Of a stretch of 64,000 nucleotides of DNA, positions 1-29,280 are shown piece by piece (position 1 is the first letter of the stretch; each line of letters begins with the position of its first letter). The DNA comes from Coriobacteriia bacterium (lineage in GTDB: Bacteria; Actinomycetota; Coriobacteriia; WRKU01; WQUG01): contig WRFR01000005.1 in NCBI GenBank assembly GCA_009778715.1, forward strand, positions 1,761-65,760, read 5' to 3'. The position numbers and the translations under genes were made by a program. Under the pieces are notes generated by a model. That model did no database searches. It had not been told where the DNA came from and worked only from the letters and a program-made list of their open reading frames with translations.

Positions 1-248
1 TGGCGCTAGAGGGTGTTGACTACCGGAAGCATTCCGGTGTGATTTCCCACTTTCAGATGCATTACGTGAAAACAGGCGTTTTCAGTAGCGAACTTTCCCG
101 GATTGTTACCAGCGCAAGTCTTGTCCGCAATGCCAGTGATTATGAAGACTTTTTTGTAGCGTCGCGGCAAGAAGCGCAAGCGCAGATCGAAGGAGCCGCG
201 CAACTTCTTGACGCCATTGGAGCATTCATCCTGAAAGCTTCTTCTTAG
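1..248 (+). CDS. HEPN-domain-like protein, C-terminal fragment (5' end lies outside the window)
   Basis: The reading frame is open from base 3 with no upstream stop. The C-terminus (…VRNASDYEDFFVASRQEAQAQIEGAAQLLDAIGAFI) resembles the alpha-helical end of HEPN domains. Confidence 0.3.
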   Translation, partial: ALEGVDYRKHSGVISHFQMHYVKTGVFSSELSRIVTSASLVRNASDYEDFFVASRQEAQAQIEGAAQLLDAIGAFILKASS

Positions 249-868
249 CGCAGGCCGTATTTTTTTCGAACACGGGTGAGCGCACCTTCGAGCATCGGGC
301 CGAACAGCGCGAGAAAGACAGCGGTCGAGGCGGCGAAGATAGCATTGAAGGGAACGCCTGCCACATAGATGGGCCAGGCAGTCTGCCAGTTGAGGTTCTG
401 GGTGAAGAGCAGCGCTGACGAGGTGTCAACGATCAGTCCATAGAGCACAAACGTTGCGACGCCGCCGACTGCCGCGACCAGCCAGCGGTTGCGGGGCAGG
501 CGGTTCTTGGCAAAGAGCGCGCCAGCCAGGCAACCGACCAGGCCAAAAGCGAGCATCTGCCAGGGCGTCCAGGGCCCCTGGCCAAAGATGAAGTTCGAGG
601 CAAGCGCGGTCAATGCCCCGATGGTGAAACCGTTGCGGGCTCCCAGCGCGATGCCCGCGACGATAACGACGGCCATCACGGGTTTGACTTGTGGCACCAT
701 AAAAAACGCGGCGCGACTGGCCACGGCGAGCGCTACCAGTACGGCGACCAATACCAGCTCGCGCGTACGGGGGCGGCGCCTTTCGAAGTCCAGGGCGAAC
801 AAACCCAGGGCCAAGGCTACCAGGATCAGGCTGACGACGTAGTAATGTCGGGTAAAAAAGGCGATCAT
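245..868 (-). CDS. ECF transporter S (substrate-capture) component, probable corrinoid-specific (CbrT-like)
   Basis: A 207-aa polytopic membrane protein of ~6 TM helices is encoded directly downstream of ecfA/ecfT in the same operon. That operon is preceded by a cobalamin riboswitch. Confidence 0.55.
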   Translation of the reverse strand: MIAFFTRHYYVVSLILVALALGLFALDFERRRPRTRELVLVAVLVALAVASRAAFFMVPQVKPVMAVVIVAGIALGARNGFTIGALTALASNFIFGQGPWTPWQMLAFGLVGCLAGALFAKNRLPRNRWLVAAVGGVATFVLYGLIVDTSSALLFTQNLNWQTAWPIYVAGVPFNAIFAASTAVFLALFGPMLEGALTRVRKKYGLR

Positions 869-2553
869 TCGGGCGTACCCGGGCTCAGGGCCGCGATGAT
901 ATCGCTGGTCGTGATCGCATCAGGCGCCAGCCCCCGACTGATGCGGCGGGCAGCGGTAGTGTAGTACGTCATGTTCGCGAAAAACGGACGCGGCGGGGCG
1001 CTGGCAGTGATCTCTCCGTTGAAGCACAGGCAACAACGGTCAGCATGGCGCGCGCAGAACTCAATATCATGCGATACCATGACCACGGACAGGCCCTCCG
1101 CTGCGATCAGGGTGTGGAGGAGCTTGGCGAAACGTTGTTTGAAGATTGCATCCATGCCCTTGGTCGGCTCATCGAGCAACAGGAGTCTCGGGCGCGCGAG
1201 CAAGACGTCGGCCAGGGCGATGCGCTGGGCCTCGCCCCCGCTCACGTCGAAGGGGTGGCGGTCGAGCAGCCCGGTAATCTCGCACTGGTCGATAACGTCG
1301 CTGAGGCGCTGGGCGCGCTCGGTGGCGCTGCCGCTTGCAAGTGGCAGCATCGCGGTAAGCTCTTCGCGCACGGTCTTGTGTGTGAACAGCAGGCGCGGAT
1401 CCTGTGGGAGCAAGGCGATGCCGCCCGTCCCGGTACCGCCGACGAGCATGTGTTGGTCGCGTTTGACGCGGCCGCGATAGGGCTTCAGCAGGCCGGCGAT
1501 GATGTTGAGTGTGGTGGTCTTGCCCGTGGCGTTGCTACCGACGATCGCCGTGAGTTCGCCCGGGTAGATGTCAAGATTGAGACCACGCAGAACGTCGGGC
1601 GCGTTGCGCTCATAGCGAAACCAGACTTCATGCAGCGACAACAGGGGTTTGGCTGAGGCGTCGAGCTCCCGCGGCGCAACGATCGGAGCCTCCTCCGCTA
1701 CAGAGCGACTGGAAAGCTTCTCCTGTAAGTACGCGCGTCCGGCACGGACGGTAGTGGGAGCAGGGGTAACTCCGATGGCACGTTCGCCCTCCAGCGCAGA
1801 GAACAAGCGGATCGGCGTCGGGAGCGCGGCGAACATCGGGCTGTGTGCTGCAAGCAGATCGGCGCCGATGTGTTCCGGCGTCGCATCGGCGATCAGGCGC
1901 CCGCTCTCCAATACAAGCACACGATCTGCCAGAGGGACGACCTCCTCCAGGCGTTGCTCGGAGACGATGATGGTCGTGCCGATCTCGTCGTTGATTTTCT
2001 TGCACGTTGTCAGAAAGTTGGCGGCAGCGATCGGGTCGAGCTGGGAGGTCGGCTCGTCACAGAGGAGCAGCGCGGGACGGCTTGCCATGATGGCGGCGAG
2101 GTTCAGAAGTTGCTTCTGGCCGCCGGAAAGCACATTGCATGCGCAGCCAAACCACTCTTGAATGCCGAAGAAACTCGCTATTTCTGCGACGCGCAGGCGG
2201 ATCTCATCGGAGGCTACGCCCAGGTTCTCCAGCCCGAAGGCGAGCTCGTGGTAGACCTGGTCGGTGACGATCTGACTGTCAGGATCCTGCAGGATGAAGC
2301 CGATGTGGCTGGCGCTCTCGCGGGCCGGAAGTTCATCAAGCAGGCGGCCGGCGAGGCGGATCTGCCCTTCGCGCTCACCTGCCGGAGCCAGCGCCGGCTT
2401 GAGCTGGCGCAGCAACGTTGTTTTGCCACAGCCGGACGGGCCGCAGAGTACCACGAATGACCCGGCGTCAATGTCCAGGCACAGATCGCTCAGCGCAGGG
2501 GCCGTTGCATCGGGGTAGCTGAAACTCAGATGGTCGAGCGCGAGATACGCCAT
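865..2553 (-). CDS. ecfA: ECF transporter ATPase, fused EcfA-EcfA' (two ABC ATP-binding cassettes)
   Basis: There are two Walker A motifs (GPSGCGKTT and GSNATGKTT), two LSGGQ-like signatures (LSGGQKQ and VSGGEAQ) and two Walker B motifs (LLLCDEP and LLLLDEP). Length is 562 aa. Confidence 0.85.
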   Translation of the reverse strand: MAYLALDHLSFSYPDATAPALSDLCLDIDAGSFVVLCGPSGCGKTTLLRQLKPALAPAGEREGQIRLAGRLLDELPARESASHIGFILQDPDSQIVTDQVYHELAFGLENLGVASDEIRLRVAEIASFFGIQEWFGCACNVLSGGQKQLLNLAAIMASRPALLLCDEPTSQLDPIAAANFLTTCKKINDEIGTTIIVSEQRLEEVVPLADRVLVLESGRLIADATPEHIGADLLAAHSPMFAALPTPIRLFSALEGERAIGVTPAPTTVRAGRAYLQEKLSSRSVAEEAPIVAPRELDASAKPLLSLHEVWFRYERNAPDVLRGLNLDIYPGELTAIVGSNATGKTTTLNIIAGLLKPYRGRVKRDQHMLVGGTGTGGIALLPQDPRLLFTHKTVREELTAMLPLASGSATERAQRLSDVIDQCEITGLLDRHPFDVSGGEAQRIALADVLLARPRLLLLDEPTKGMDAIFKQRFAKLLHTLIAAEGLSVVMVSHDIEFCARHADRCCLCFNGEITASAPPRPFFANMTYYTTAARRISRGLAPDAITTSDIIAALSPGTPE

Positions 2554-3503
2554 GCGACCTCCTCCTGCAATTCGAAAAGGACTGGCAATAAGCAGAGCAG
2601 GCCGAACGCGCCGTAGGCGCAGGCTATCAGCAGATTGCGAGCGTTGGCGGGCAGGCCAGCAGCGCCAAGGTTCAGCTGGAGACTCGGCAGGTACTGCGCT
2701 GACACGACGCCGGAGGTCAGCGCGACAATGACCACCGCCGCGCAGGTAAGGATCAGCGCCAGGGCGCCGGCGTCACGCGCAGTGAACCGGAACGGGCGGT
2801 AAGCGCTGCGCCCCGGGAGCCCATAGCCGCGCGCGTGCATCGAATCTGCTGTGTCGAGCGCGGATTCCAGCGCCCAGCTGGTCAGTATCGACAGGACGGC
2901 GAAGCTGTTGCGCAAGCGGTTGAGCAGATTAGCTGCGTGACAAACACCCCAGGGGTATTTGTCACCACCAGGGGAGTCTGTCACGCTCGCGGAATTCCGC
3001 CCCAGGCCACGCTGGGCGGCCGTGATTGCCTTGAGCTGGCGCAGGTAGCGGGGCACGAAGCGCAGCGCCATCGAGACGGTCAGCGCCAGCGATGGGATGA
3101 TACGCCCAAACACCGCAAGGAACTTCTCTGTAGTGACGACTACGTTGTAGCAGGTAAACCACAGCAGCATCGCAACCAGCATGCAGGCCAGCGCGGCGCC
3201 ATAGAGGAGCGCCTCGCGTGTCACGGGATTACCACCAATCTGTCCGATGATCGTAACGCCCTGGTGATTGAACAGCGGGTTGATTGCAGCAGCGATCAGT
3301 GCCAGCGGCACGAGTCCGGCAAGAAGCCGCAAGGTGCTGCGTCCGCCGCGGAGTTGCAGGCACAATACCAGCGCGCCCAGAACAGAGCAGGCCAACAGGA
3401 CGGGGTGCGGCACGAAGACCGACACGCCGATGACCAGCACGAAGTAACCGATGCTGACTGCTGGGTGCAAGGAGGCGAAGCCACCTGAGTGATCAGCGGG
3501 CAC
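2526..3503 (-). CDS. ecfT: ECF transporter transmembrane T component (EcfT/CbiQ family)
   Basis: It is a polytopic membrane protein immediately upstream of ecfA in the same operon, which is the typical EcfT position, and it has an Arg-rich coupling region. Confidence 0.7.
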   Translation of the reverse strand: MPADHSGGFASLHPAVSIGYFVLVIGVSVFVPHPVLLACSVLGALVLCLQLRGGRSTLRLLAGLVPLALIAAAINPLFNHQGVTIIGQIGGNPVTREALLYGAALACMLVAMLLWFTCYNVVVTTEKFLAVFGRIIPSLALTVSMALRFVPRYLRQLKAITAAQRGLGRNSASVTDSPGGDKYPWGVCHAANLLNRLRNSFAVLSILTSWALESALDTADSMHARGYGLPGRSAYRPFRFTARDAGALALILTCAAVVIVALTSGVVSAQYLPSLQLNLGAAGLPANARNLLIACAYGAFGLLCLLPVLFELQEEVAWRISRSTI

Positions 3504-4305
3504 CGCTTGCCCCTACGTCAGCGCCTCCGTTGCAGGTATAGCGGAAAGCGACCACATCGCCTGCTTTTAGAACATACTTGCTGCAGCCGGTGCTCGTGTA
3601 GGTGCCGTTGACGCTATAGACCCAGCCCGAGCGCGGGCCGCAGTCGAACTCATTGAGGTTGCCGATGCCCTTGATGTAGGCGCTGCCGTAACCGGGCATC
3701 TGCGAATACTCCAGCGAGACACCAGCAGCTTTGCACGCACGCTGCAGAACGGAGAAGACGGTATCGCCCTCTTGCAGAGTTACACTCTGCTTGCCAAGTA
3801 TGACGCCGCTTGAGGGGACGATCGACTTCTTGCTCGCTTTCAAGTTGCCCATGTTGGAGAGCACGGTGCGACAGCTGGCAGAGATCGAGACGGTCGCGGG
3901 TTTCGGGACCGGCGCTGGCGCGGGCGCCGGGGTGGTTTTGTTCGGTTTCGTGGCGCCGCCGCCTGAGCTGTTAGAACCTGAGGCCCCAGGCGCAGAAGAG
4001 GAGGAGTTCGACGTGCCACCCGACGCGCTGCCCGCCGAGCCGACAGAAGAACCTTTGGGGCTGGCTGCAGCAGAGCCAGCCTTGTTCGTTCCTGGACCTG
4101 CCTGTGTTGAAGTACCTGTTATGCCCAGGCCCGACGCGCTCTCTGAAGACTCGTTTGAGGTCCCGTTCTCCTGGGCAAGCGTTTTGCTGGCTGTGCTGTC
4201 TGGCGTCTTATAGTGCTGCGCCAAAGCCAGCCCGATAGCAGTGGCCCCGCACAGGACCACTGCCACGCAGCTTACGATGAGTATGAGTTTTGTGCGCTGC
4301 TTCAT
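3493..4305 (-). CDS. DUF4430 (transcobalamin-like C-terminal domain) surface protein with an N-terminal membrane anchor and a Ser/Gly-rich linker
   Basis: It has a signal/anchor helix and then a low-complexity S/G/A-rich region. The C-terminal ~90 aa carry DUF4430-type motifs (GDTVFSVL…GYGSAYIKGIGNLNEF…GWVYSVNG…LKAGDVV). The gene sits in a riboswitch-controlled ECF operon. Confidence 0.65.
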   Translation of the reverse strand: MKQRTKLILIVSCVAVVLCGATAIGLALAQHYKTPDSTASKTLAQENGTSNESSESASGLGITGTSTQAGPGTNKAGSAAASPKGSSVGSAGSASGGTSNSSSSAPGASGSNSSGGGATKPNKTTPAPAPAPVPKPATVSISASCRTVLSNMGNLKASKKSIVPSSGVILGKQSVTLQEGDTVFSVLQRACKAAGVSLEYSQMPGYGSAYIKGIGNLNEFDCGPRSGWVYSVNGTYTSTGCSKYVLKAGDVVAFRYTCNGGADVGASGAR

Positions 4306-5597
4306 CAGAGCGCCTGCTGCTTAGAGCGTCTCTGGGAAACGTAAAGTACGACCGCTGATCCCATGAGCACCGTTGTGGCTGCTATCAGCTGGAGCTGCTC
4401 TGAAGCTTCTCCAGCAGCGGGTAGAGCAGTCGTGGCCTTTGTGGTCTTCGTGGTCGCCGCGTTGGTTGTCGCGGGTGTTTTCGCGGGCGTCTTCTTTTTT
4501 TGCTCGGCGGCCGGTTTTTCCTTGCTTTCGTCGGCCGCTGCGCTCTTATAGGGCTGCAAAGTGACGTCGCTCATGTCGTAAAGGCGGTTGGCGCCGGTCA
4601 GCGAACGCCACAGCGAGGCCAGCGCGTACAGCCCTTGCTCCGTAGCCATGCCGTCGGGCGCCGGATCGCCCAGGTTGTTCACGAACGCCTGAGTGCCCGA
4701 CCCCGCGTCAATCAGGAAACTGGTGAGCGAATCGTAGAGGCCAACCCCTGTTTTCACGAATCTGGGGTCATCGAGCGCAATGCCCTGGCTGTTCAGCGCA
4801 ACTAGTGCCTGCGCGCTGCTCTCAGATGCAGGTACGGGTGACCATTCGCTCAGCAGGCCGCCGGTCGCATTCTGGATCAAACTGAGCGCGCCAAGGGCAG
4901 CGCTGACGGCATCGTCGACTGCGGTGGTCCCGGCATACGGGGCCAGAGCGGTAAGCGCCATGCTGGTCAGGTCAGGATCGGGCTGCGTTGCTCCCCAGCC
5001 CCAGTTCCAGCCACCGCTGGCAAGCTGCTCGGTAAGTATCGCGTCGACGAGTGCGGGGCGCGTGGTCTGGGCGCCGGCTGCCCCAGCCTTGAGCTTTGGT
5101 ACTGCGTAGGTGTGGCTGTCGAGCGCGAGCAAGGCGTAGATACTACCGCTGACGCCCTGGGCGGTGATGTCATCGAGGTTGGCGAGCGGGGCTGTCAGGT
5201 CGATGCCATTAAAGTCCGTCACGTCAACGCCGATGCTGGTCAGGGCGAGGATGACACGGTCATAGTCGGTGACTGTGCTGCCTAATGAGTTCCCCTTACT
5301 TTTGAGGTACTTTTCCAGGTTATCCAGATACTGCTGCTTCAAGGCGGCGGTCAGCTTGCCCGCGCGGGCAAGTGCCATGATGGTCCATTCGTCGCCGTAG
5401 TTCGCTCCCCGTTTTGAGAGCTGAGCGACCTCATAGGCGGACACCTTATCGATGACGCCTTTCACCTGTGAGGCGCTGGGTGAAGTGCCGGCGCCGAAAG
5501 CCGTGGCTGGCAGGCAGACAGCCAGCAACAAGGCCAGGATCAGCGCCAGGCGCCCTCTCTTGTTTCTTGTTTTGTTGGATGTTTTTACGTGTTGCAT
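4305..5597 (-). CDS. Cell-surface alpha/alpha-toroid (prenyltransferase/squalene-oxidase-repeat-like) protein with a C-terminal LPAAG sorting-signal-like anchor
   Basis: It has a signal peptide (…LAVCLPATAFGA) and repeated aromatic/Gly motifs typical of alpha6/alpha6 barrel repeats (SGGWNWGWGATQPDPDLTSMALTALAPY). The C-terminus is LPAAG followed by a hydrophobic helix and RRSK. I moved the start to Met24 at 5597, which has an AAAGGAAG RBS, because the longer ORF overlaps the riboswitch B12 box. Confidence 0.55.
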   Translation of the reverse strand: MQHVKTSNKTRNKRGRLALILALLLAVCLPATAFGAGTSPSASQVKGVIDKVSAYEVAQLSKRGANYGDEWTIMALARAGKLTAALKQQYLDNLEKYLKSKGNSLGSTVTDYDRVILALTSIGVDVTDFNGIDLTAPLANLDDITAQGVSGSIYALLALDSHTYAVPKLKAGAAGAQTTRPALVDAILTEQLASGGWNWGWGATQPDPDLTSMALTALAPYAGTTAVDDAVSAALGALSLIQNATGGLLSEWSPVPASESSAQALVALNSQGIALDDPRFVKTGVGLYDSLTSFLIDAGSGTQAFVNNLGDPAPDGMATEQGLYALASLWRSLTGANRLYDMSDVTLQPYKSAAADESKEKPAAEQKKKTPAKTPATTNAATTKTTKATTALPAAGEASEQLQLIAATTVLMGSAVVLYVSQRRSKQQAL

Positions 5598-5812
5598 GTC
5601 GCTTCCTTTCTTCTTTAACCCAAGAACATTGCGCGTGATAAGCAGAGGGTAAGTCTCCTGGCTCATGCCTGTTGTGGGCGCCTTCCCATCGCTCCACTAC
5701 AGAGTCGACAGTGGCGTTCTGCCCGATTTTGATGGCATTTACAGTTGTGGTTTGCAGCTCCGGTCTCACACCGAATTCCTTGTTACTACCTGTTGGTAAC
5801 CATCTGCTTGTA
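5598..5812 (-). ncRNA. Cobalamin (B12) riboswitch in the leader of the ECF/DUF4430 operon
   Basis: The minus strand reads …AAGGAATTCGGTGTGAGACCGGAGCTGCAAACCACAACTGTAA…GCCACTG…GGGAAGGC…GAGCCAGGAGAC. That matches the conserved GGTGA/ACCGG, GCTGC…CAACTGTAA, GCCACTG, GGGAAGGC and B12-box (AGCCAGGAGAC) blocks of the cobalamin riboswitch consensus, directly 5' of the RBS. Confidence 0.8.
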
Positions 5813-6049
5813 TCCAGTTTTCAATCTCGCTCGGTCTTCTTTGCGAGTCCTTTTCCATCCTACCGCATCCGCGCTCCCGCGTGTCAAGGTTTATCGCATA
5901 CCTGAGTGTGTTTGTTTGGTTCTGTGTTAAAATCACAAGGGCGTGAAATCAATTTTGAGCAATTGAACGATGTTTTGCGCGCTACATTCCTCAATAGTAA
6001 CAACAGACGCTGTTTCTGAATATTTCAGAGTTGACGTTTAAGGAGACTC

Positions 6050-6754
6050 ATGAAGGGCAAATGGCAAACTATAATGGGCGGAGTAATGGCGTTTTTGACC
6101 TGCAGCTTTGCAGTGTGGCGCTTTTTTGTGTCGAGCCGAACGATCGAAAGCCTCATGACGAATCTGATTGCTATTTGCGGGACGATAGTATCTCTTTTAG
6201 TTCTCCTGGTAGCTATAAAGGCTATTGTACATAATATGCACGACCATGATTTTGCAACCACCTTAGGTAACGAACTGAATAGTTGGGGAAAACAGTATTA
6301 TCCGCTGGTTTTCGTGGATGAAAAGAATAGATATGAACCAGGGGAGAATGGGATAGATACTGATGGAGCACGTTACCGGATGCTCACAGAGCATCGCCAC
6401 ATATTACGAAGAGGGGAAAGACCGGATCACGACAGCTCAGTAATCTTTTTTGATTTACCACCAACGTACAATGAAGGTGACAAAGTCCTCTTTTATCTGC
6501 GCAAAAGTATGTTTAAAGATGTCACTCGAGCGAATCATGAGGATCCAGAACAAACGATCGCAAAACTTTCTAAGGATTTTGCTAATGCCATTTCATCTGA
6601 ATTTTCTGATTTTATTAAAGCTCATGGCTATCCCGAAGGGACGGATGACCGGGTTACAGTAATCTTCAATCGGAATCTACATACGCCTGATGACGCACGC
6701 CTACTCGTGAAGCTTCTCAGCTATGTAACGATTTTATATCTGGCAGTCGCGTAA
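6050..6754 (+). CDS. hypothetical membrane-anchored protein in a low-GC island
   Basis: The ORF is 234 aa with an AGGAG RBS and two N-terminal hydrophobic helices. It is AT-rich relative to its surroundings, and I recognise no family. Confidence 0.4.
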   Translation: MKGKWQTIMGGVMAFLTCSFAVWRFFVSSRTIESLMTNLIAICGTIVSLLVLLVAIKAIVHNMHDHDFATTLGNELNSWGKQYYPLVFVDEKNRYEPGENGIDTDGARYRMLTEHRHILRRGERPDHDSSVIFFDLPPTYNEGDKVLFYLRKSMFKDVTRANHEDPEQTIAKLSKDFANAISSEFSDFIKAHGYPEGTDDRVTVIFNRNLHTPDDARLLVKLLSYVTILYLAVA

Positions 6755-6761
6755 AGTTAGA

Positions 6762-8066
6762 TCAGAGCATTGATGCCAGGTAAATAGGGAGGTAGGTCAC
6801 AGATTCGGCTTGCTCAATATTCGTCTCCGCTAAGACCAGGGCTTCAGAGATGTCGAACTCCTTTACGGCCAGAGCATTGTTCAACGCGGCATGCGACTTA
6901 TATCCGGCGCCTGATTTCACTTCAAGCGCGATGATTGCGCCATCCTTTCGCTCGATGACAAAATCCAGTTCGCCGATCTTCTTGTTGGTGTAATATCGCA
7001 AGGTGTAGCCGTGCGCTACCAATTCTTGCGCGACGAAGTTCTCATAAATGCCGCCAAGCTGTTTTGCTGGTTTGCCGCTTAGCAGCCCTAGCAGAGACTC
7101 TTTGGGAAATTGACTTGCCAGAAGCCCAACGTCGGAAAGGAATAGTTTAAAAAGACGATGATTTTCTGAGAGTAATAGCGGACTTATCGGCGCCCGTACG
7201 TTGTAGGTTGCCAATGCCACATTTGCCCGGGTGAGCCAGAGGAACTCATCCTGTATTTGCGAGTATCGTTTTACGTTTTCAATCGAGCTAAGTCTGAAAC
7301 GCCTGTTCTGTGCTAAGAGCTCACTGGGAATAAGGTCGAAAATGCTTTTGATGACCAGGCGTCGATCTTTGGGCGCGTACTTACTGATATCACGTGCGTA
7401 GTATTTCAGAATGCCTTCTTGTACGACACGAACCTGATCAATGGAGTTGGTCTCGAAGAAGGCTACAACCGCATCGGGCATGCCTCCGACCAGCAGATAG
7501 CGGTGGAAAAGCGCTAAAAGGCGCTCGTGCAAATAGTCGGGGAGCGCCTCGTTGTGCGCGCGGCAGTCTTGTGCGAGTTGGGTCGATTCTTCACCAAACC
7601 CTGCGGCCCAACAGAACTCTTCGAAGTCCAAGGGATACATTAACACCTCGGTTACATAGCCAACAGGCTGCGATCTGATGTCTTCCAACTCCACTCCGAG
7701 CATCGAACCAGAGAGGATGTAATCATAGTCTCCTGTGTCGACCAGGAACTTGATGAGCGTCATGATCTCGGGGCACTCTTGTACTTCGTCAATAAATATT
7801 ACGGTTCTTCCGGGTTCCAGGAGTGTTGGGGAAGCGACCGACATTCTGAGCATGAGATCTTCGGCACTTGACGCTTCTCTAAATGAATCTCGTGCTTCCA
7901 TGTTCTCGACAAGGTTAAACTCGATGACATTCTCGTAATTCTTTTTTGCAAACTCCCGGATAAGAAAGGTCTTTCCTACTTGCCGTGCTCCCGCTACAAG
8001 CAAAGCTTGTTTCGTTTTATTCTGTTTCCAGAATTCAAAACGTTTGAGTGCTTTACGACAAAGCAT
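6762..8066 (-). CDS. AAA+ ATPase with C-terminal DUF4143 domain (COG1373 family)
   Basis: It has a Walker A motif (GARQVGKT) and a Walker B motif (IFIDEVQ), and is 434 aa. It is a paralog of the 57397..58755 gene. Confidence 0.75.
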   Translation of the reverse strand: MLCRKALKRFEFWKQNKTKQALLVAGARQVGKTFLIREFAKKNYENVIEFNLVENMEARDSFREASSAEDLMLRMSVASPTLLEPGRTVIFIDEVQECPEIMTLIKFLVDTGDYDYILSGSMLGVELEDIRSQPVGYVTEVLMYPLDFEEFCWAAGFGEESTQLAQDCRAHNEALPDYLHERLLALFHRYLLVGGMPDAVVAFFETNSIDQVRVVQEGILKYYARDISKYAPKDRRLVIKSIFDLIPSELLAQNRRFRLSSIENVKRYSQIQDEFLWLTRANVALATYNVRAPISPLLLSENHRLFKLFLSDVGLLASQFPKESLLGLLSGKPAKQLGGIYENFVAQELVAHGYTLRYYTNKKIGELDFVIERKDGAIIALEVKSGAGYKSHAALNNALAVKEFDISEALVLAETNIEQAESVTYLPIYLASML

Positions 8067-14933: not shown

Positions 14934-16025
14934 TTACTTGCTGATCTCAAGCAGCTTGTTCTTGAGCTCGCCCTCGATGGCCTGGAGCCTGACTTCAGCG
15001 GCCTGGCGCTGCTCGCGGCCTTCCTTCTGGATCGCCAGCACTTCATCGAGCGTGGTCATGAGATCCTGGTTGGTCTGCTCGAGCGTCTCGACTTCAACGA
15101 TGCCGCGCTCCGAGGCTTTCGCGGCCTCGATGGAGCCCGCTTTCAGTTGGGCCGAATTACGTTTGAGCAGCTCGTTGGTGGTCTCGTCGACCTCTGCCTG
15201 CGCCTTTTCAGCCTCAGCCTGGTTAAAGAGGCTCTTTGCGAGGACCAGCTGCTGCTTCCACAGCGGGATCGTGTTGTTGATCGTAGAGTTGATCTTGTTG
15301 ACCATCGCCGTATCGGCGCCTTGGATCAGCCGTATCTGGGGCGCTGTCTGGATAGAGATGGTACGAGTCAGCTGCAGGTCATAGAGCCGTTTCTCGAACA
15401 GGTTGATCGCTTCGCTTAACCGGTAGGATTTTTCCGCGTCGGCCTGATCGCCGCTCTCTGACGCTTTCGCCTGGAGCGCGATAAGATCCGCGTGGCCTTT
15501 CTCCAGAGCCTGTTTGCCCGCGAGGATATAGAGCGTCAGGTCCTGATAGTACTTCAGGTTCTCGTCATACATGGTATCAAGCATCGTGACATCTGCCTGG
15601 AGCTCCATCTCATGGCCCTTGAGCTTTGCCACGACCTGGTCGACGCTGGATTCGATGGCGGTATAGCGCGCCTGGATCTTTGTAATACTGGCGCCCGCTT
15701 TCTTGAACAGGCCCATGATGCCCTTGGCCTCGTTAGGGTTAAAGCCTTTCAGATCCACCATCAAGTTGGTGATCAGACCGCCGACCTCGCCCATATCCTT
15801 GCCGCGGACTTTGCCCAGGGCGGATTCTGTAAACGATGACATGCGTTGCTGTGCGCCGGCGCCATAGGTCTGGATGGCGTTGGTGTCAAACGTGATGGCC
15901 TGCGCCCGTTGATCGACCAGAGCTTGTTGCTCGGGAGTAAGATCGGGCTTGCTGTCGTCTTTTACCAGATCAGTCACCTCTGGCTGTTGGGTTTCTTCTT
16001 GTGGCATATCCATGATCGCATCCAT
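14934..16025 (-). CDS. telA: TelA-like toxic anion resistance family protein
   Basis: It is a ~360 aa all-helical protein with TelA-like conserved stretches (KLKGHEMELQADVTMLDTMYDENLKYYQDL). The start was reassigned to the ATG that has an AAAGGAG RBS. Confidence 0.7.
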   Translation of the reverse strand: MDAIMDMPQEETQQPEVTDLVKDDSKPDLTPEQQALVDQRAQAITFDTNAIQTYGAGAQQRMSSFTESALGKVRGKDMGEVGGLITNLMVDLKGFNPNEAKGIMGLFKKAGASITKIQARYTAIESSVDQVVAKLKGHEMELQADVTMLDTMYDENLKYYQDLTLYILAGKQALEKGHADLIALQAKASESGDQADAEKSYRLSEAINLFEKRLYDLQLTRTISIQTAPQIRLIQGADTAMVNKINSTINNTIPLWKQQLVLAKSLFNQAEAEKAQAEVDETTNELLKRNSAQLKAGSIEAAKASERGIVEVETLEQTNQDLMTTLDEVLAIQKEGREQRQAAEVRLQAIEGELKNKLLEISK

Positions 16026-16232
16026 GTTGATAGCTCCTTTCAAACACCGAATTGTAGGCTCCTGCGCAGCGGAAAGCAAATGTTGCGCACTAAAGTTTCA
16101 TAGTGTTTGTATCATACACGATGATGCGGTCGACCGTCTGCCATGAGACCAGGCGATGGCGGACAATAGCGCAGTGACAAAAGGACCCCGGGGATCCTTT
16201 TGTCATGTGAGCAAATCGATGCCGTTTGCCAC

Positions 16233-17255
16233 TCAGGCGGCTTTGTTGCGCAGGGCGCGGCTGGCGGTGCTGACGGTGTCAACGACCAGCGCAAAGCAGA
16301 TGATGAAGAAGAGCCCGACGCCCAGATGGGGCGCCCACGCAGCGAGCTGCGCTGAGCCGTTGCCGACCAGGAGCTTGCTGAGGTAGCTCAGAAAAGCCGG
16401 ATTCATGATTGCGGGGCTCAGGAACACCACGGCGGTGCAGGCAAGGATCAGGATGTTCGCGATCAGGGTTGCGAGCGCTACGCGCACCGAGTACTGGCCC
16501 TCGATGAGCATGACAGTTTGTTTTGCGATCCCCAGGATCGCCCAAAGGAGTATCAGCGGCCAGAAACTCCGAATGACAGAGGTTGCAAACACGGGAATCC
16601 ATGTGCCGCTCTCGAGCCAGACGCTGATGATTTGCGGAAAACCCAGGAAAACGATCAAGAGGACAGCCGACCAGAACATGCCGACGATCGGGACGATCAG
16701 TTTGATTTCGGCGCGCTTCTGGGGCACGGGCCGCAGTCGTGAGAAAAAGTCATCCTGGGGAGTGAGGCCGACGTGGAGGCGCTGCATGATCGCGAAGATG
16801 ATCGTCAGTATTGCGAAGGCCCAGAATGCGCCGCCTATCGCGCCGCCGATGGTCTGCCCAAAGAGCTGGCCCGCCAATATCAGGGGATTGGTTGCCGGTT
16901 TTGTGTTGACCAGCGCCGAGATCGCGCCTGAAATTGCGACGACTGCGGTAATGACCGGCAGCAGGAAGCGCAGGATCCGCTTATAGAGAATGAAGTAGCC
17001 GCCGCTGATAAGCGCTCCATTTTCGTCCCCGCTGTATTTGGCCGCGAGCTCTTCTGGTGTGCCGAGCTCGGTCAGAACGACGCGGATATCTTTTTCTGTG
17101 GGCGTGATGGCGCCGCAGCGCTCCGTCAGCATGTCTGCGATCAGGCTGTCGAGTTCCTTTTCTACGTCAGCCCGCATTTTCTCGGGCAGGTAGCGGGTGA
17201 CCGCGTAGATATAGCGCGTGATCAGGTCGTCGTGCTCGTTACTCATAGCTTTCAA
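16233..17255 (-). CDS. PadR-associated membrane protein (DUF1700-like N-terminal domain plus polytopic membrane domain)
   Basis: It overlaps the stop of the upstream PadR gene. It has a soluble N-terminus (…ITRYIYAVTRYLPEKMRADVEKELDSLI…) followed by several TM helices. Confidence 0.4.
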   Translation of the reverse strand: MKAMSNEHDDLITRYIYAVTRYLPEKMRADVEKELDSLIADMLTERCGAITPTEKDIRVVLTELGTPEELAAKYSGDENGALISGGYFILYKRILRFLLPVITAVVAISGAISALVNTKPATNPLILAGQLFGQTIGGAIGGAFWAFAILTIIFAIMQRLHVGLTPQDDFFSRLRPVPQKRAEIKLIVPIVGMFWSAVLLIVFLGFPQIISVWLESGTWIPVFATSVIRSFWPLILLWAILGIAKQTVMLIEGQYSVRVALATLIANILILACTAVVFLSPAIMNPAFLSYLSKLLVGNGSAQLAAWAPHLGVGLFFIICFALVVDTVSTASRALRNKAA

Positions 17256-22818: not shown

Positions 22819-22896
22819 GTGGTGGGCGATACAGGATTTGAACCTGTGACCTTGACCTTGTAAGGGTCCTGCGCTCCCGCTGCGCCAATCGCCCAC
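22819..22896 (-). tRNA. tRNA-Val (anticodon TAC), with encoded CCA
   Basis: The reverse complement reads GTGGGCGATTGGCGCAGCGGGAGCGCAGGACCCTTACAAGGTC…GGTTCAAATCCTGTATCGCCCACCA. This gives a cloverleaf with anticodon loop CTTACAA. Confidence 0.8.
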
Positions 22897-22958
22897 GTTC
22901 CTAAAACGTGCACCGGAGAGCCGCGCTGGTCGTGCGAGTTGCCCTCCGAAGAGAAAGC

Positions 22959-23036
22959 TGGTGCCCCCGACGGAATTCGAATCCGTGTTGCCGCCTTGAA
23001 AGGGCGGTGACCTTGGCCTCTAGTCGACGGGGGCGC
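22959..23036 (-). tRNA. tRNA-Glu (anticodon TTC), with encoded CCA
   Basis: The reverse complement reads GCGCCCCCGTCGACTAGAGG…CCGCCCTTTCAAGGCGG…GGATTCGAATCCGTCGGGGGCACCA. The anticodon loop is CTTTCAA. Confidence 0.8.
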
Positions 23037-23038
23037 TT

Positions 23039-23114
23039 TGGTGCGCCATGTAGGAATCGAACCTACGACCTTAGGATTAAAAGTCCTCTGCTCTGCCAAC
23101 TGAGCTAATGGCGC
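23039..23114 (-). tRNA. tRNA-Lys (anticodon TTT), with encoded CCA
   Basis: The reverse complement reads GCGCCATTAGCTCAGTTGGCAGAGCAGAGGACTTTTAATCCTAAGGTCGTAGGTTCGATTCCTACATGGCGCACCA. The anticodon loop is CTTTTAA. Confidence 0.8.
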
Positions 23115-29203: not shown

Positions 29204-29280
29204 GGGGGTATAGCTCAGCTGGTTAGAGCGCTGGCCTGTCAAGCCAGAGGTCGCGAGTTCAAGTCTCGTTACTCCCGCCA
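29204..29280 (+). tRNA. tRNA-Asp (anticodon GTC), with encoded CCA
   Basis: The sequence is GGGGGTATAGCTCAGCTGGTTAGAGCGCTGGCCTGTCAAGCCAGAGGTCGCGAGTTCAAGTCTCGTTACTCCCGCCA. A hairpin (GCAGACA-GTT-TGTCTGC) follows. Confidence 0.85.

Follow-up and report, generated by a model that had tools for sequence, protein, structure and literature searches.

We consider it likely that a five-gene operon from a Gram-positive Coriobacteriia bacterium encodes a B12-repressed, dedicated (group I) ECF importer of corrinoids along with two accessory surface proteins, and that these two proteins probably catch B12. The operon is located in a 64,000-nucleotide stretch of contig WRFR01000005.1, hereafter called the window, where a cobalamin riboswitch is followed on the minus strand by five co-directional genes (g1 to g5) running from position 5597 down to position 245. 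The analyses reported herein establish the RNA, the order and coupling of the genes, the folds and family assignments of the proteins, and that the cluster is conserved. What an earlier first-pass annotation of this DNA had observed is confirmed, and its interpretation of the two surface proteins is partly supported.

A Cobalamin Riboswitch Precedes Five Overlapping Genes

The aptamer occupies positions 5631-5819 on the minus strand. A covariance search, which the first-pass annotation had proposed as a check, matches this region to the Rfam cobalamin riboswitch model RF00174 along all of its 189 positions (1-189). With 88.2 bits and E = 3.6e-21, the match lies far above the gathering score, which is 31.5, and it was reproduced when the whole window was scanned. 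It takes in the B12 box, with GCCACUG and AGCCAGGAGAC aligned to the model. The riboswitch had previously been placed at 5598-5812. The element itself stands, but nucleotides 5598-5630 are a linker and not part of the aptamer.

Reading of the sequence assigns positions 5595-5630 (minus strand) to this expression-platform linker and the start codon of g1. The 33 nt between the aptamer and the start codon contain the ribosome-binding site, with the Shine-Dalgarno sequence GAAAGGAAG at 5602-5610 (21-29 nt past the aptamer) and the g1 ATG at 5595-5597. No terminator-like site was found on the minus strand in the leader region. Because the linker is too short for a terminator, we infer that the operon is controlled at the level of translation, with the riboswitch predicted to act on g1 in this manner. 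Minimum free energy folding of the leader was uninformative (z-score of 0.37), and the expression platform was defined without it. A scan for sigma-70 promoters upstream of the operon gave no match; a TTGACA at 5882-5887, separated by a 19-nt spacer from TAGGAT, is promoter-like and merely suggestive. We rejected a longer open reading frame for g1 that reaches 5666, which overlaps the aptamer, and two public gene calls start at the ATG of the 430-amino-acid protein.

Overlaps are present at all four gene junctions, successively as TGATG, a GTG within the g2 stop region, 28 nt, and ATGA. This arrangement, together with the position of the aptamer 33 nt upstream, bears out the proposal of a riboswitch-controlled five-gene operon, and the presence of overlaps throughout indicates a single, tightly coupled unit.

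The Last Three Genes Encode a Dedicated ECF Module

The gene g3 (2526-3503, minus strand) codes for the T component, EcfT, as assigned by its orthologue profile. Translation may begin with the GTG at 3503 or 11 residues farther downstream. Searches of g3 against Pfam yielded no match, the CbiQ model included. As a single sequence, the protein matches the EcfT chain 5d3m_D with an E value of 4e-4, and the orthologue profile matches EcfT chains with an E value of 1.1e-16. Its AQRGLG and HARGYG segments align to both Arg-containing coupling-helix motifs of 5d3m_D. The adjoining g4 (865-2553, minus strand) encodes a fused EcfA-EcfA' ATPase of 562 amino acids with two ABC domains. Pfam ABC_tran matches it in two stretches (177 bits), the NCBIfam models ECF_ATPase_1 and ECF_ATPase_2 score 300 and 273 bits, respectively, and the cbiO subfamily model is also passed.

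The final gene, g5 (245-868, minus strand), encodes an S component of 207 amino acids that scores above the Pfam cut-offs for ECF-ribofla_trS and ECF_trnsprt. A phmmer search recovered 6fnp_A (CbrT) at an E value of 8e-10 as the sole S component matched. With the orthologue profile, CbrT is matched at 3.8e-18, whereas the next-best matches fall in the range of 1e-5 (2.3e-5 for 4hzu_S, which is HmpT-like, and 3.6e-5 for RibU, 3p5n). By sequence comparison, g5 is thus specifically CbrT-like, and S components with other specificities are more distant from it than the characterized CbrT. These matches agree with the earlier proposal of a corrinoid importer.

The identities that the first-pass annotation had given to these three genes (EcfT, an EcfA-EcfA' fusion, and an S component) are upheld by Pfam and NCBIfam models and by the orthologue profiles. 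A T component with two Arg motifs, two ATPase domains, and an S component are all encoded in the same operon, which is the composition of a group I ECF transporter. From the riboswitch and this homology, the substrate of the transporter is predicted to be a corrinoid.

The First Two Genes Encode a Putatively Wall-Anchored Toroid and a Membrane-Tethered SLBB Protein

The product of g1 (4305-5597, minus strand), defined by its open reading frame and by family and fold assignment, is a secreted, putatively wall-anchored alpha/alpha-toroid protein of 430 amino acids. A signal peptide (residues 1-35) is followed by the toroid (about residues 40-350; nt 4548-5480), a K/T/A/P-rich linker, and a putative sorting region at residues 392-430 that comprises LPAAG (nt 4410-4424), a hydrophobic segment, and a basic RRSK tail. 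Ala replaces the Thr of the LPXTG motif, and at 19.9 the region falls just short of the Pfam LPXTG cut-off of 20. In close orthologues, the corresponding motif reads LPTTG, LANTG, LADTG, or IPPTG.

In both sequence and structure, the toroid is matched best by class II terpene cyclases and by sugar epimerases. Its fold resembles terpene-cyclase-type toroids more closely than it does the alpha domain of transcobalamin. No sequence-profile membership in Pfam PF01122, the transcobalamin alpha domain, was found for g1, and hhalign comparison of the toroid with an alignment of TCN2 that is shallow and restricted to mammals gave nonsignificant E values of 0.35 and 0.17. The human TCN2 query scores 394 bits with PF01122 and is 98-100% identical to UniRef human entries. 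Single-sequence searches of g1 and g2 against the PDB returned no match.

Given these matches, one might ask whether the toroid is an extracellular enzyme, such as a terpenoid cyclase, a prenyltransferase, or a glycan-active toroid enzyme, that the operon has simply recruited. Such a role would suit its QW-like repeats (QLASGGW) and the large number of polar residues that do not vary. However, the residues aligned to the DxDD site read D207-P-D209-L-T, wherein the third Asp is missing and the position is variable across the family, and the D-x-x-T-A pattern of g1 is also present in noncatalytic repeats of terpene cyclases. The signal peptide contains the only Cys, which leaves the mature protein with no Cys and one His and hence unable to form the Asp/Cys/His zinc site of prenyltransferases. 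We therefore rejected g1 both as an intact class II terpene cyclase (DPDL instead of DxDD) and as a protein prenyltransferase beta subunit (no Cys to serve as zinc ligand), and so the intact active site that would have spoken against the first-pass interpretation is not present. Furthermore, the protein is predicted to be secreted and wall-anchored, far from isoprenoid diphosphates, and in dozens of species its family belongs to a transporter operon under B12 control. An enzymatic role for the toroid is consequently very hard to credit.

The product of g2 (3493-4305, minus strand) is a membrane-tethered DUF4430/SLBB protein of 270 amino acids. An N-terminal transmembrane helix (residues 3-27) is joined by a disordered Ser/Gly/Ala/Thr/Pro-rich linker of about 104 amino acids (nt 3904-4215) to a beta-grasp domain (residues 135-262; nt 3520-3903). 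The match to the Pfam DUF4430 model (PF14478) reaches 64.5 bits (cut-off, 23.8), and this score and the transmembrane helix substantiate the previous assignment of a membrane-anchored DUF4430 protein. The domain has the beta-grasp core that characterizes the transcobalamin-like SLBB clade, in which a beta-hairpin insertion follows the helix. The transcobalamin-type beta domain, a member of this Pfam family, is the top structural match. The hhalign comparison of this domain with TCN2 is weak (E of about 0.03-0.04 with the shallow, mammal-only alignment) and in the right register. A profile of full-length g2 matched only low-complexity or coiled segments in the PDB.

The Gene Cluster Is Conserved and Frequently Linked to Cobalamin Riboswitches

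Our survey set comprised 79 species loci with a homologue of the g1 toroid. ECF T and A genes lie on the same strand as the toroid gene in 47 of these, and ECF genes are found alongside in 40 of the 57 loci whose sequence continues downstream for 6 kb or more. A gene of the g2 type (DUF4430) is present within 3.5 kb at 41 of the 47 ECF loci. For the riboswitch census, a regex prescreen was followed by Rfam analysis of all 47 ECF loci. This revealed a same-strand RF00174 match upstream at 22 of the 47 and a match nearby in four more; at 25 loci, some of them on contigs that end a short distance upstream, no same-strand upstream riboswitch reached the Rfam gathering score. The cluster occurs in many Clostridia and some Coriobacteriia; the operon described here is its minimal form, in which the parts are cleanly separated.

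These statistics bear on a different reading of the operon, namely that it imports heme (an iron-tetrapyrrole), as proposed for lsa1836-1840 of Lactobacillus sakei on the basis of docking and physiological data for a system with the same five components (bioRxiv 10.1101/864751). We judge this quite improbable. In addition to the cobalamin riboswitches on the present operon and on the 22 homologous operons, the S component is CbrT-like, and in ECF-CbrT hemin is no competitor of cobalamin (PMC5997447). Moreover, no heme-related genes are located within 10 kb on either side of the operon. Indeed, the frequency of riboswitches makes the L. sakei "heme" system worth re-examining for corrinoid transport.

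Relatives also carry fusions of the toroid and DUF4430, in both domain orders, at the same kind of loci. In the fusions available among the retrieved proteins, the SLBB domain precedes the toroid, which is opposite to the order in transcobalamin. The fusions favor the proposal of the first-pass annotation that g1 and g2 constitute a B12 binder split into two polypeptides. However, a toroid-linked SLBB domain occurs together with a separate g2-type SLBB protein at 14 of the 47 loci. Because the toroid of relatives often has its own DUF4430 domain beside a g2-type protein, g2 is not simply the missing half of g1, and arrangements other than a g1-g2 pair are possible.

A Possible Route for Corrinoid Capture and Hand-Off

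For the corrinoid importer that we favor, the following sequence of events can be envisioned. When intracellular cobalamin is high, the riboswitch would fold and mask the ribosome-binding site, thereby turning off the coupled five-gene operon. When B12 is scarce, the sortase-anchored toroid would be displayed on the peptidoglycan, and the SLBB/DUF4430 domain would be held at the membrane on its flexible tether of about 100 residues. The beta-grasp domain of g2 may then bind a corrinoid, by itself or in a clamp with the toroid like that of transcobalamin and intrinsic factor, and could pass it to the CbrT-like S component, which would import it with EcfT and the fused EcfA-A' ATPase.

As a tentative elaboration, to which we give somewhat less than even weight, the g1 toroid and the tethered SLBB domain might form a ligand-induced, two-chain clamp, wherein the SLBB domain swings on its tether and ferries the corrinoid from the peptidoglycan to CbrT. 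When the alpha and beta fragments of intrinsic factor are separated, they reassemble around cobalamin, and the proposed clamp resembles this behavior. If true, the operon would represent a Gram-positive corrinoid relay and a living, split relative of the ancestor behind the transcobalamin-type carriers of animals.

It is also conceivable, but in our view unlikely, that the importer operates without such a clamp. The tethered SLBB domain would then be the sole binder and shuttle, and the toroid would serve separately as a wall-bound corrinoid reservoir, in selecting the type of cobamide, or in binding another ligand. Sequence does not link the toroid to PF01122, and its structure lies nearer to other toroid families; the 14 loci with both SLBB types suggest that g2 has a function of its own. 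In addition, the study behind PDB entry 5no0 reportedly found that the isolated beta domain of transcobalamin binds cobalamin by itself. Conversely, the recurrent fusion of toroid and SLBB in a single chain, the adjacency and translational coupling of g1 and g2, and their co-occurrence at 41 of the 47 ECF loci all argue for a joint function.

Competition for corrinoids shapes gut communities, and to our knowledge experimental work on surface capture of B12 has been carried out almost exclusively in Bacteroidota. In a passage on Gram-positive Firmicutes, a 2026 review calls extracellular cobamide capture by BtuH/BtuJ homologues "entirely uncharacterized" (PMC13616437). Our literature search found no bacterial toroid/SLBB pair with reported binding or transport data, the present system included. 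With every domain present as a small, expressible protein of its own, the operon would offer a convenient test system. The type of system is already known: the idea of B12 scavenging dates from 2007 (PMC1796856) and the modeling of a split transcobalamin from the L. sakei preprint (10.1101/864751).

Comparison with Known Systems

The BtuG, BtuH, and BtuJ proteins of Bacteroides are surface corrinoid-binding lipoproteins that are encoded beside a transporter, feed BtuB, and belong to riboswitch-controlled systems. As far as we know, the folds, the outer-membrane, TonB-dependent architecture, and the phylum are all unrelated. In that surface binders adjoin a transporter gene, the present operon is a functional analogue of these capture systems (PMC8941943, PMC13616437, bioRxiv 10.1101/2025.07.01.662609).

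Closer to the importer itself is ECF-CbrT of Lactobacillus delbrueckii (PDB 6FNP), which has been shown to accept cobalamin and cobinamide as substrates (Santos et al. 2018, PMC5997447). The S component and EcfT are homologous to g5 and g3, and both systems use ECF-type ATPases. However, CbrT relies on a shared general module (group II) and is encoded in an nrdJ-cbrS-cbrT-pduO cluster, whereas the present operon carries a dedicated module with fused ATPases, riboswitch control, and two added surface proteins. The report on ECF-CbrT describes no toroid or DUF4430 partners and mentions no riboswitch; where it treats earlier predictions, it credits that of CbrTUV to Rodionov et al. 2009.

The surface proteins have their nearest precedent in the transcobalamin-like SLBB proteins for which Burroughs, Balaji, Iyer, and Aravind predicted B12 scavenging in 2007 (PMC1796856). 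Those proteins share the SLBB domain family, the association with toroids, Gram-positive anchors, and ABC/ECF-type (CbiO/CbiQ-like) neighbors. That study relied on computation alone, came before the ECF/CbrT concept, and dealt mainly with fused proteins. In the present system, the toroid and SLBB domain are separate chains with different predicted anchors (peptidoglycan versus membrane), and the link to riboswitches is quantified.

The L. sakei lsa1836-1840 operon, described in the 2019 preprint as an "ECF-like heme transporter," corresponds to the present one in its described parts: an S component, a fused A-A' ATPase, a T component, and secreted beta-like and alpha-like proteins modeled as a heterodimer on haptocorrin and transcobalamin. 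It differs in that heme is claimed as the substrate and no riboswitch is mentioned. That preprint is the sole experimental paper on a homologous-looking operon, and it argues for heme. Finally, eukaryotic transcobalamin, intrinsic factor, and haptocorrin share with the present system a beta domain of the same Pfam family and an alpha/alpha-toroid partner, although their PF01122 alpha domain has no detectable sequence homology to g1. The eukaryotic carriers are single, soluble polypeptides recognized by receptors, whereas the system described here is divided between two chains with predicted anchors and is joined to an ECF importer.

A Cobalamin Riboswitch Precedes Five Overlapping Genes

The first-pass annotation placed a cobalamin riboswitch on the minus strand of the window, followed by five minus-strand genes. 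A search with RF00174 located the aptamer at 5631-5819 (minus strand) with the whole model covered (88.2 bits against a gathering score of 31.5, E 3.6e-21), and an Rfam scan of the whole window found the match again. The coordinates and gene list of that annotation are likewise correct. The genes encode a putatively wall-anchored alpha/alpha toroid of 430 amino acids (4305-5597), a DUF4430/SLBB protein of 270 amino acids (3493-4305), EcfT (2526-3503), a fused EcfA-EcfA′ ATPase (865-2553), and an S component (245-868). All junctions overlap: the toroid and SLBB genes meet in TGATG, the GTG start of the EcfT gene lies within the end of the SLBB gene, the EcfT and ATPase genes share 28 nucleotides preceded by GGAGG, and the ATPase and S component genes meet in ATGA.

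Only 33 nucleotides separate the aptamer from the ATG of the toroid gene (5595-5597, minus strand). This start, which yields the 430-amino-acid protein, is used by two public gene calls (identical contigs); a longer reading frame from 5666 extends into the aptamer. A Shine-Dalgarno sequence, GAAAGGAAG, can be read at 5602-5610 (minus strand), and a search between the aptamer and the ATG found no terminator-like hairpin. Given these features of the short linker, we infer that the riboswitch controls translation initiation rather than attenuation.

Between the riboswitch and a serA-like gene, positions 5820-8066 have a GC content of 43-49%, compared with 61-64% for the operon and 62.6% for the next gene. 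This stretch, which carries a predicted membrane protein of 234 amino acids with no Pfam match (6050-6754, plus strand) and an AAA_14/DUF4143 ATPase (6762-8066, minus strand), looks like a recent insertion. At the other end, a HEPN and nucleotidyltransferase (MNT-like) toxin-antitoxin pair (39-248, plus strand, and past the left edge; 15350-16265 of locus L001) is convergent with the operon. The 3′ end of the HEPN gene overlaps the stop of the S component gene by 4 nucleotides, so there is no room for a terminator. Elsewhere in the window lie three clustered tRNA genes (22823-23114, minus strand) and, about 6 kb on, one more (29204-29277, plus strand).

The Transporter Genes Resemble ECF-CbrT

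The proposed identities of the last three genes as EcfT, an EcfA-EcfA′ fusion, and an S component were upheld. The 562-amino-acid ATPase has two ABC_tran domains in Pfam and scores about 300 and 273 bits against two ECF-ATPase equivalogs. A Pfam search of the EcfT protein returned no match; the protein aligns with Lactobacillus delbrueckii EcfT across both Arg-containing coupling-helix motifs, and a profile of 18 orthologues matches three EcfT structures (E 1e-16 to 3e-13). The S component passes Pfam S-component models, and the sole S component that it matched among all PDB chains is 6FNP chain A (E 8e-10). A profile of 18 orthologues gave E 3.8e-18 for CbrT, the B12 S component of L. delbrueckii, with an HmpT-like chain and RibU next at about 1e-5. 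The 6FNP structure is ECF-CbrT, for which import of cobalamin and cobinamide has been proven biochemically (PMC5997447). These family matches therefore identify the product of the three genes as an ECF transporter of group I, with its own dedicated module and an S component of the CbrT type.

Two Surface Proteins with Different Predicted Anchors

The SLBB protein matches Pfam DUF4430 with 64.5 bits (cut-off 23.8). In its AF2 model, residues 3-27 form an N-terminal transmembrane helix and residues 135-262 a confidently folded domain (pLDDT above 90); the roughly 100 residues that link them are disordered, with a composition dominated by Ser, Gly, Ala, Thr, and Pro. Because aligned Clostridia orthologues begin with either a transmembrane helix or a lipobox-like GC motif, the family is predicted to be membrane-tethered. 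A human transcobalamin (TCN2) sequence, validated with PF01122 (394 bits) and by 98-100% identity to UniRef human entries, is also matched above cut-off by the DUF4430 model at residues 352-424. The suggestion that the transcobalamin beta domain has its bacterial counterpart in DUF4430 is correct, a correspondence that originates with Burroughs et al. 2007 (PMC1796856).

In the extracellular SLBB domain, four cysteines (145, 222, 241, and 258; window 3520-3903) show complete or almost complete conservation among 32 homologues; they could pair as disulfides or, by analogy with the BtuM cysteine, could provide a cobalt ligand. Many homologues of the SLBB protein (P0126, P0128, P0131, P0137, and others) reach about 450 amino acids, with a FecR domain (PF04773) N-terminal to DUF4430.

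In the toroid protein, a signal peptide and the toroid are followed by a stalk of some 40 residues, rich in Lys, Thr, Ala, and Pro, and then by LPAAG, a hydrophobic stretch, and the tail RRSK. Where it carries LPAAG, its nearest orthologues carry LPTTG, LANTG, LADTG, or IPPTG, and more distant relatives are anchored by SLH domains or plain transmembrane segments. Thus, the sequence features mark it as a probable cell-wall or surface protein.

Pfam found no domain in this protein except a borderline LPXTG anchor. Weak Prenyltrans or SQHop_cyclase matches occur in many homologues, and the family profile matches the repeat units of class II terpene cyclases (drimenyl diphosphate synthase, for example, at E 9e-12). 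An hhalign comparison with TCN2 was not significant (E 0.35 with the single sequence, 0.17 with a 23-sequence mammalian alignment). Comparison with eukaryotic carriers gave 18.1 for haptocorrin, 18.0 for intrinsic factor, and 17.7 for transcobalamin. The toroid and the carrier alpha domain share a common fold class, from which the carriers are not singled out.

The toroid is unlikely to act as an enzyme, given its missing catalytic motifs and extracellular location. Neither a true cyclase nor a true prenyltransferase with an intact active site was found: in place of the cyclase DxDD motif the sequence is D-P-D-L-T, the final Asp of the motif varies across the family, and the mature protein has no Cys and one His only, which excludes a zinc site.

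Conservation and Riboswitch Linkage

Scanning one genome for each GTDB species yielded 490 toroid relatives, of which the best 79 loci were examined. These are mainly from Clostridia (Oscillospiraceae, Lachnospiraceae, Ruminococcus, Christensenella, and Anaerovorax), plus three records assigned to Coriobacteriia, Actinomycetes, and Ellagibacter. Among the 79, the nearest two toroids are 64% and 60% identical to that of the window; one belongs to a Coriobacteriia MAG whose five proteins are all 61-83% identical to those of the window. The DNA of the window thus probably comes from a member of the Coriobacteriia. Same-strand ECF T and A genes accompany the toroid at 47 of the 79 loci (40 of the 57 whose sequence continues downstream for 6 kb or more). 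A separate DUF4430 gene lies within 3.5 kb at 41 of these 47 ECF loci, and an extra DUF4430 domain is fused to the toroid or encoded just upstream at 18. Single polypeptides combine toroid and DUF4430 in both orders, including surface proteins of 1,200-2,300 residues that head the operon.

In Clostridia, giant DUF4430 and toroid proteins of 1,382-2,319 amino acids often come first, between the riboswitch and the toroid gene (L027 1600-7992; L031 610-6555; L038 3246-10202; L074 4899-9044). A second EcfT-like gene follows the S gene at 10 of the 47 loci (L005 13173-14045; L007, L016, L025, L033, L034, L038, L056, L075, and L076), and in many of these the separate DUF4430 gene is upstream of the toroid gene, not downstream.

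Rfam analysis of all 47 ECF loci found RF00174 upstream of the cluster and on the same strand as the operon, directly before the first co-directional gene, at 22; at three others a divergent riboswitch is adjacent, and at one a riboswitch precedes an additional DUF4430 gene. Among the loci with no match, several are truncated upstream. A genome is estimated to hold only a handful of cobalamin riboswitches, and thus their enrichment here links the entire cluster to corrinoid homeostasis. At L008, a second cobalamin riboswitch (15905-16077) lies 3′ of the S gene, directly before a stand-alone DUF4430 gene (16598-16960). An Anaerovorax MAG carries three tandem same-strand aptamers (L068 6214-6398, 6684-6907, and 7469-7692) upstream of its toroid-DUF4430-ECF operon.

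A Proposed Route for Corrinoid Capture

We propose that B12 represses the operon through its riboswitch and that, because the gene junctions overlap, the five translationally coupled proteins would be co-expressed stoichiometrically. The SLBB domain would capture external corrinoid, either unaided or clamped onto the toroid, as suggested by SLBB homology to the B12-contacting transcobalamin domain, recurrent toroid-SLBB fusions, and operon context. The corrinoid would then pass to the CbrT-type component for ATP-driven import, by homology to ECF-CbrT. The different anchoring of the two proteins suggests a relay across the wall, with the toroid fixed in peptidoglycan and the SLBB domain on a membrane tether that may be long enough to reach it. 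A weaker variant, in which binding falls to the SLBB domain and the toroid serves some other function, draws on the many relatives that have both a toroid-attached SLBB domain and a separate SLBB protein; we consider it unlikely.

Relation to Known Systems

The operon architecture is identical to that of Lactobacillus sakei lsa1836-1840, whose authors modelled both secreted proteins as a transcobalamin-like alpha/beta heterodimer, whereas the substrate claimed there is heme (bioRxiv 10.1101/864751). Heme import by this family is argued against by the cobalamin riboswitch in the window and at 22 related loci, by the CbrT-like S component, and by the failure of hemin to compete in ECF-CbrT (PMC5997447). 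The surface proteins more likely serve corrinoid uptake, and SLBB/toroid proteins beside CbiO/CbiQ-like genes have been predicted as B12 scavengers (PMC1796856, 2007). Our literature searches turned up no experiment showing that a bacterial member binds corrinoid, and a 2026 review (PMC13616437) describes the capture of extracellular cobamides by BtuH/BtuJ homologues of Gram-positive Firmicutes as uncharacterised.

The riboswitch, the ECF-CbrT transporter type (PMC5997447, 2018), the transcobalamin-like SLBB/toroid proteins, and the B12-scavenging prediction are already known, and the split alpha/beta reading was published for heme in 2019. This analysis adds a compact split example from an actinobacterial lineage and quantifies conservation and riboswitch linkage, with the structural models showing a beta half that is truly transcobalamin-like and an alpha half that matches at the level of fold only.
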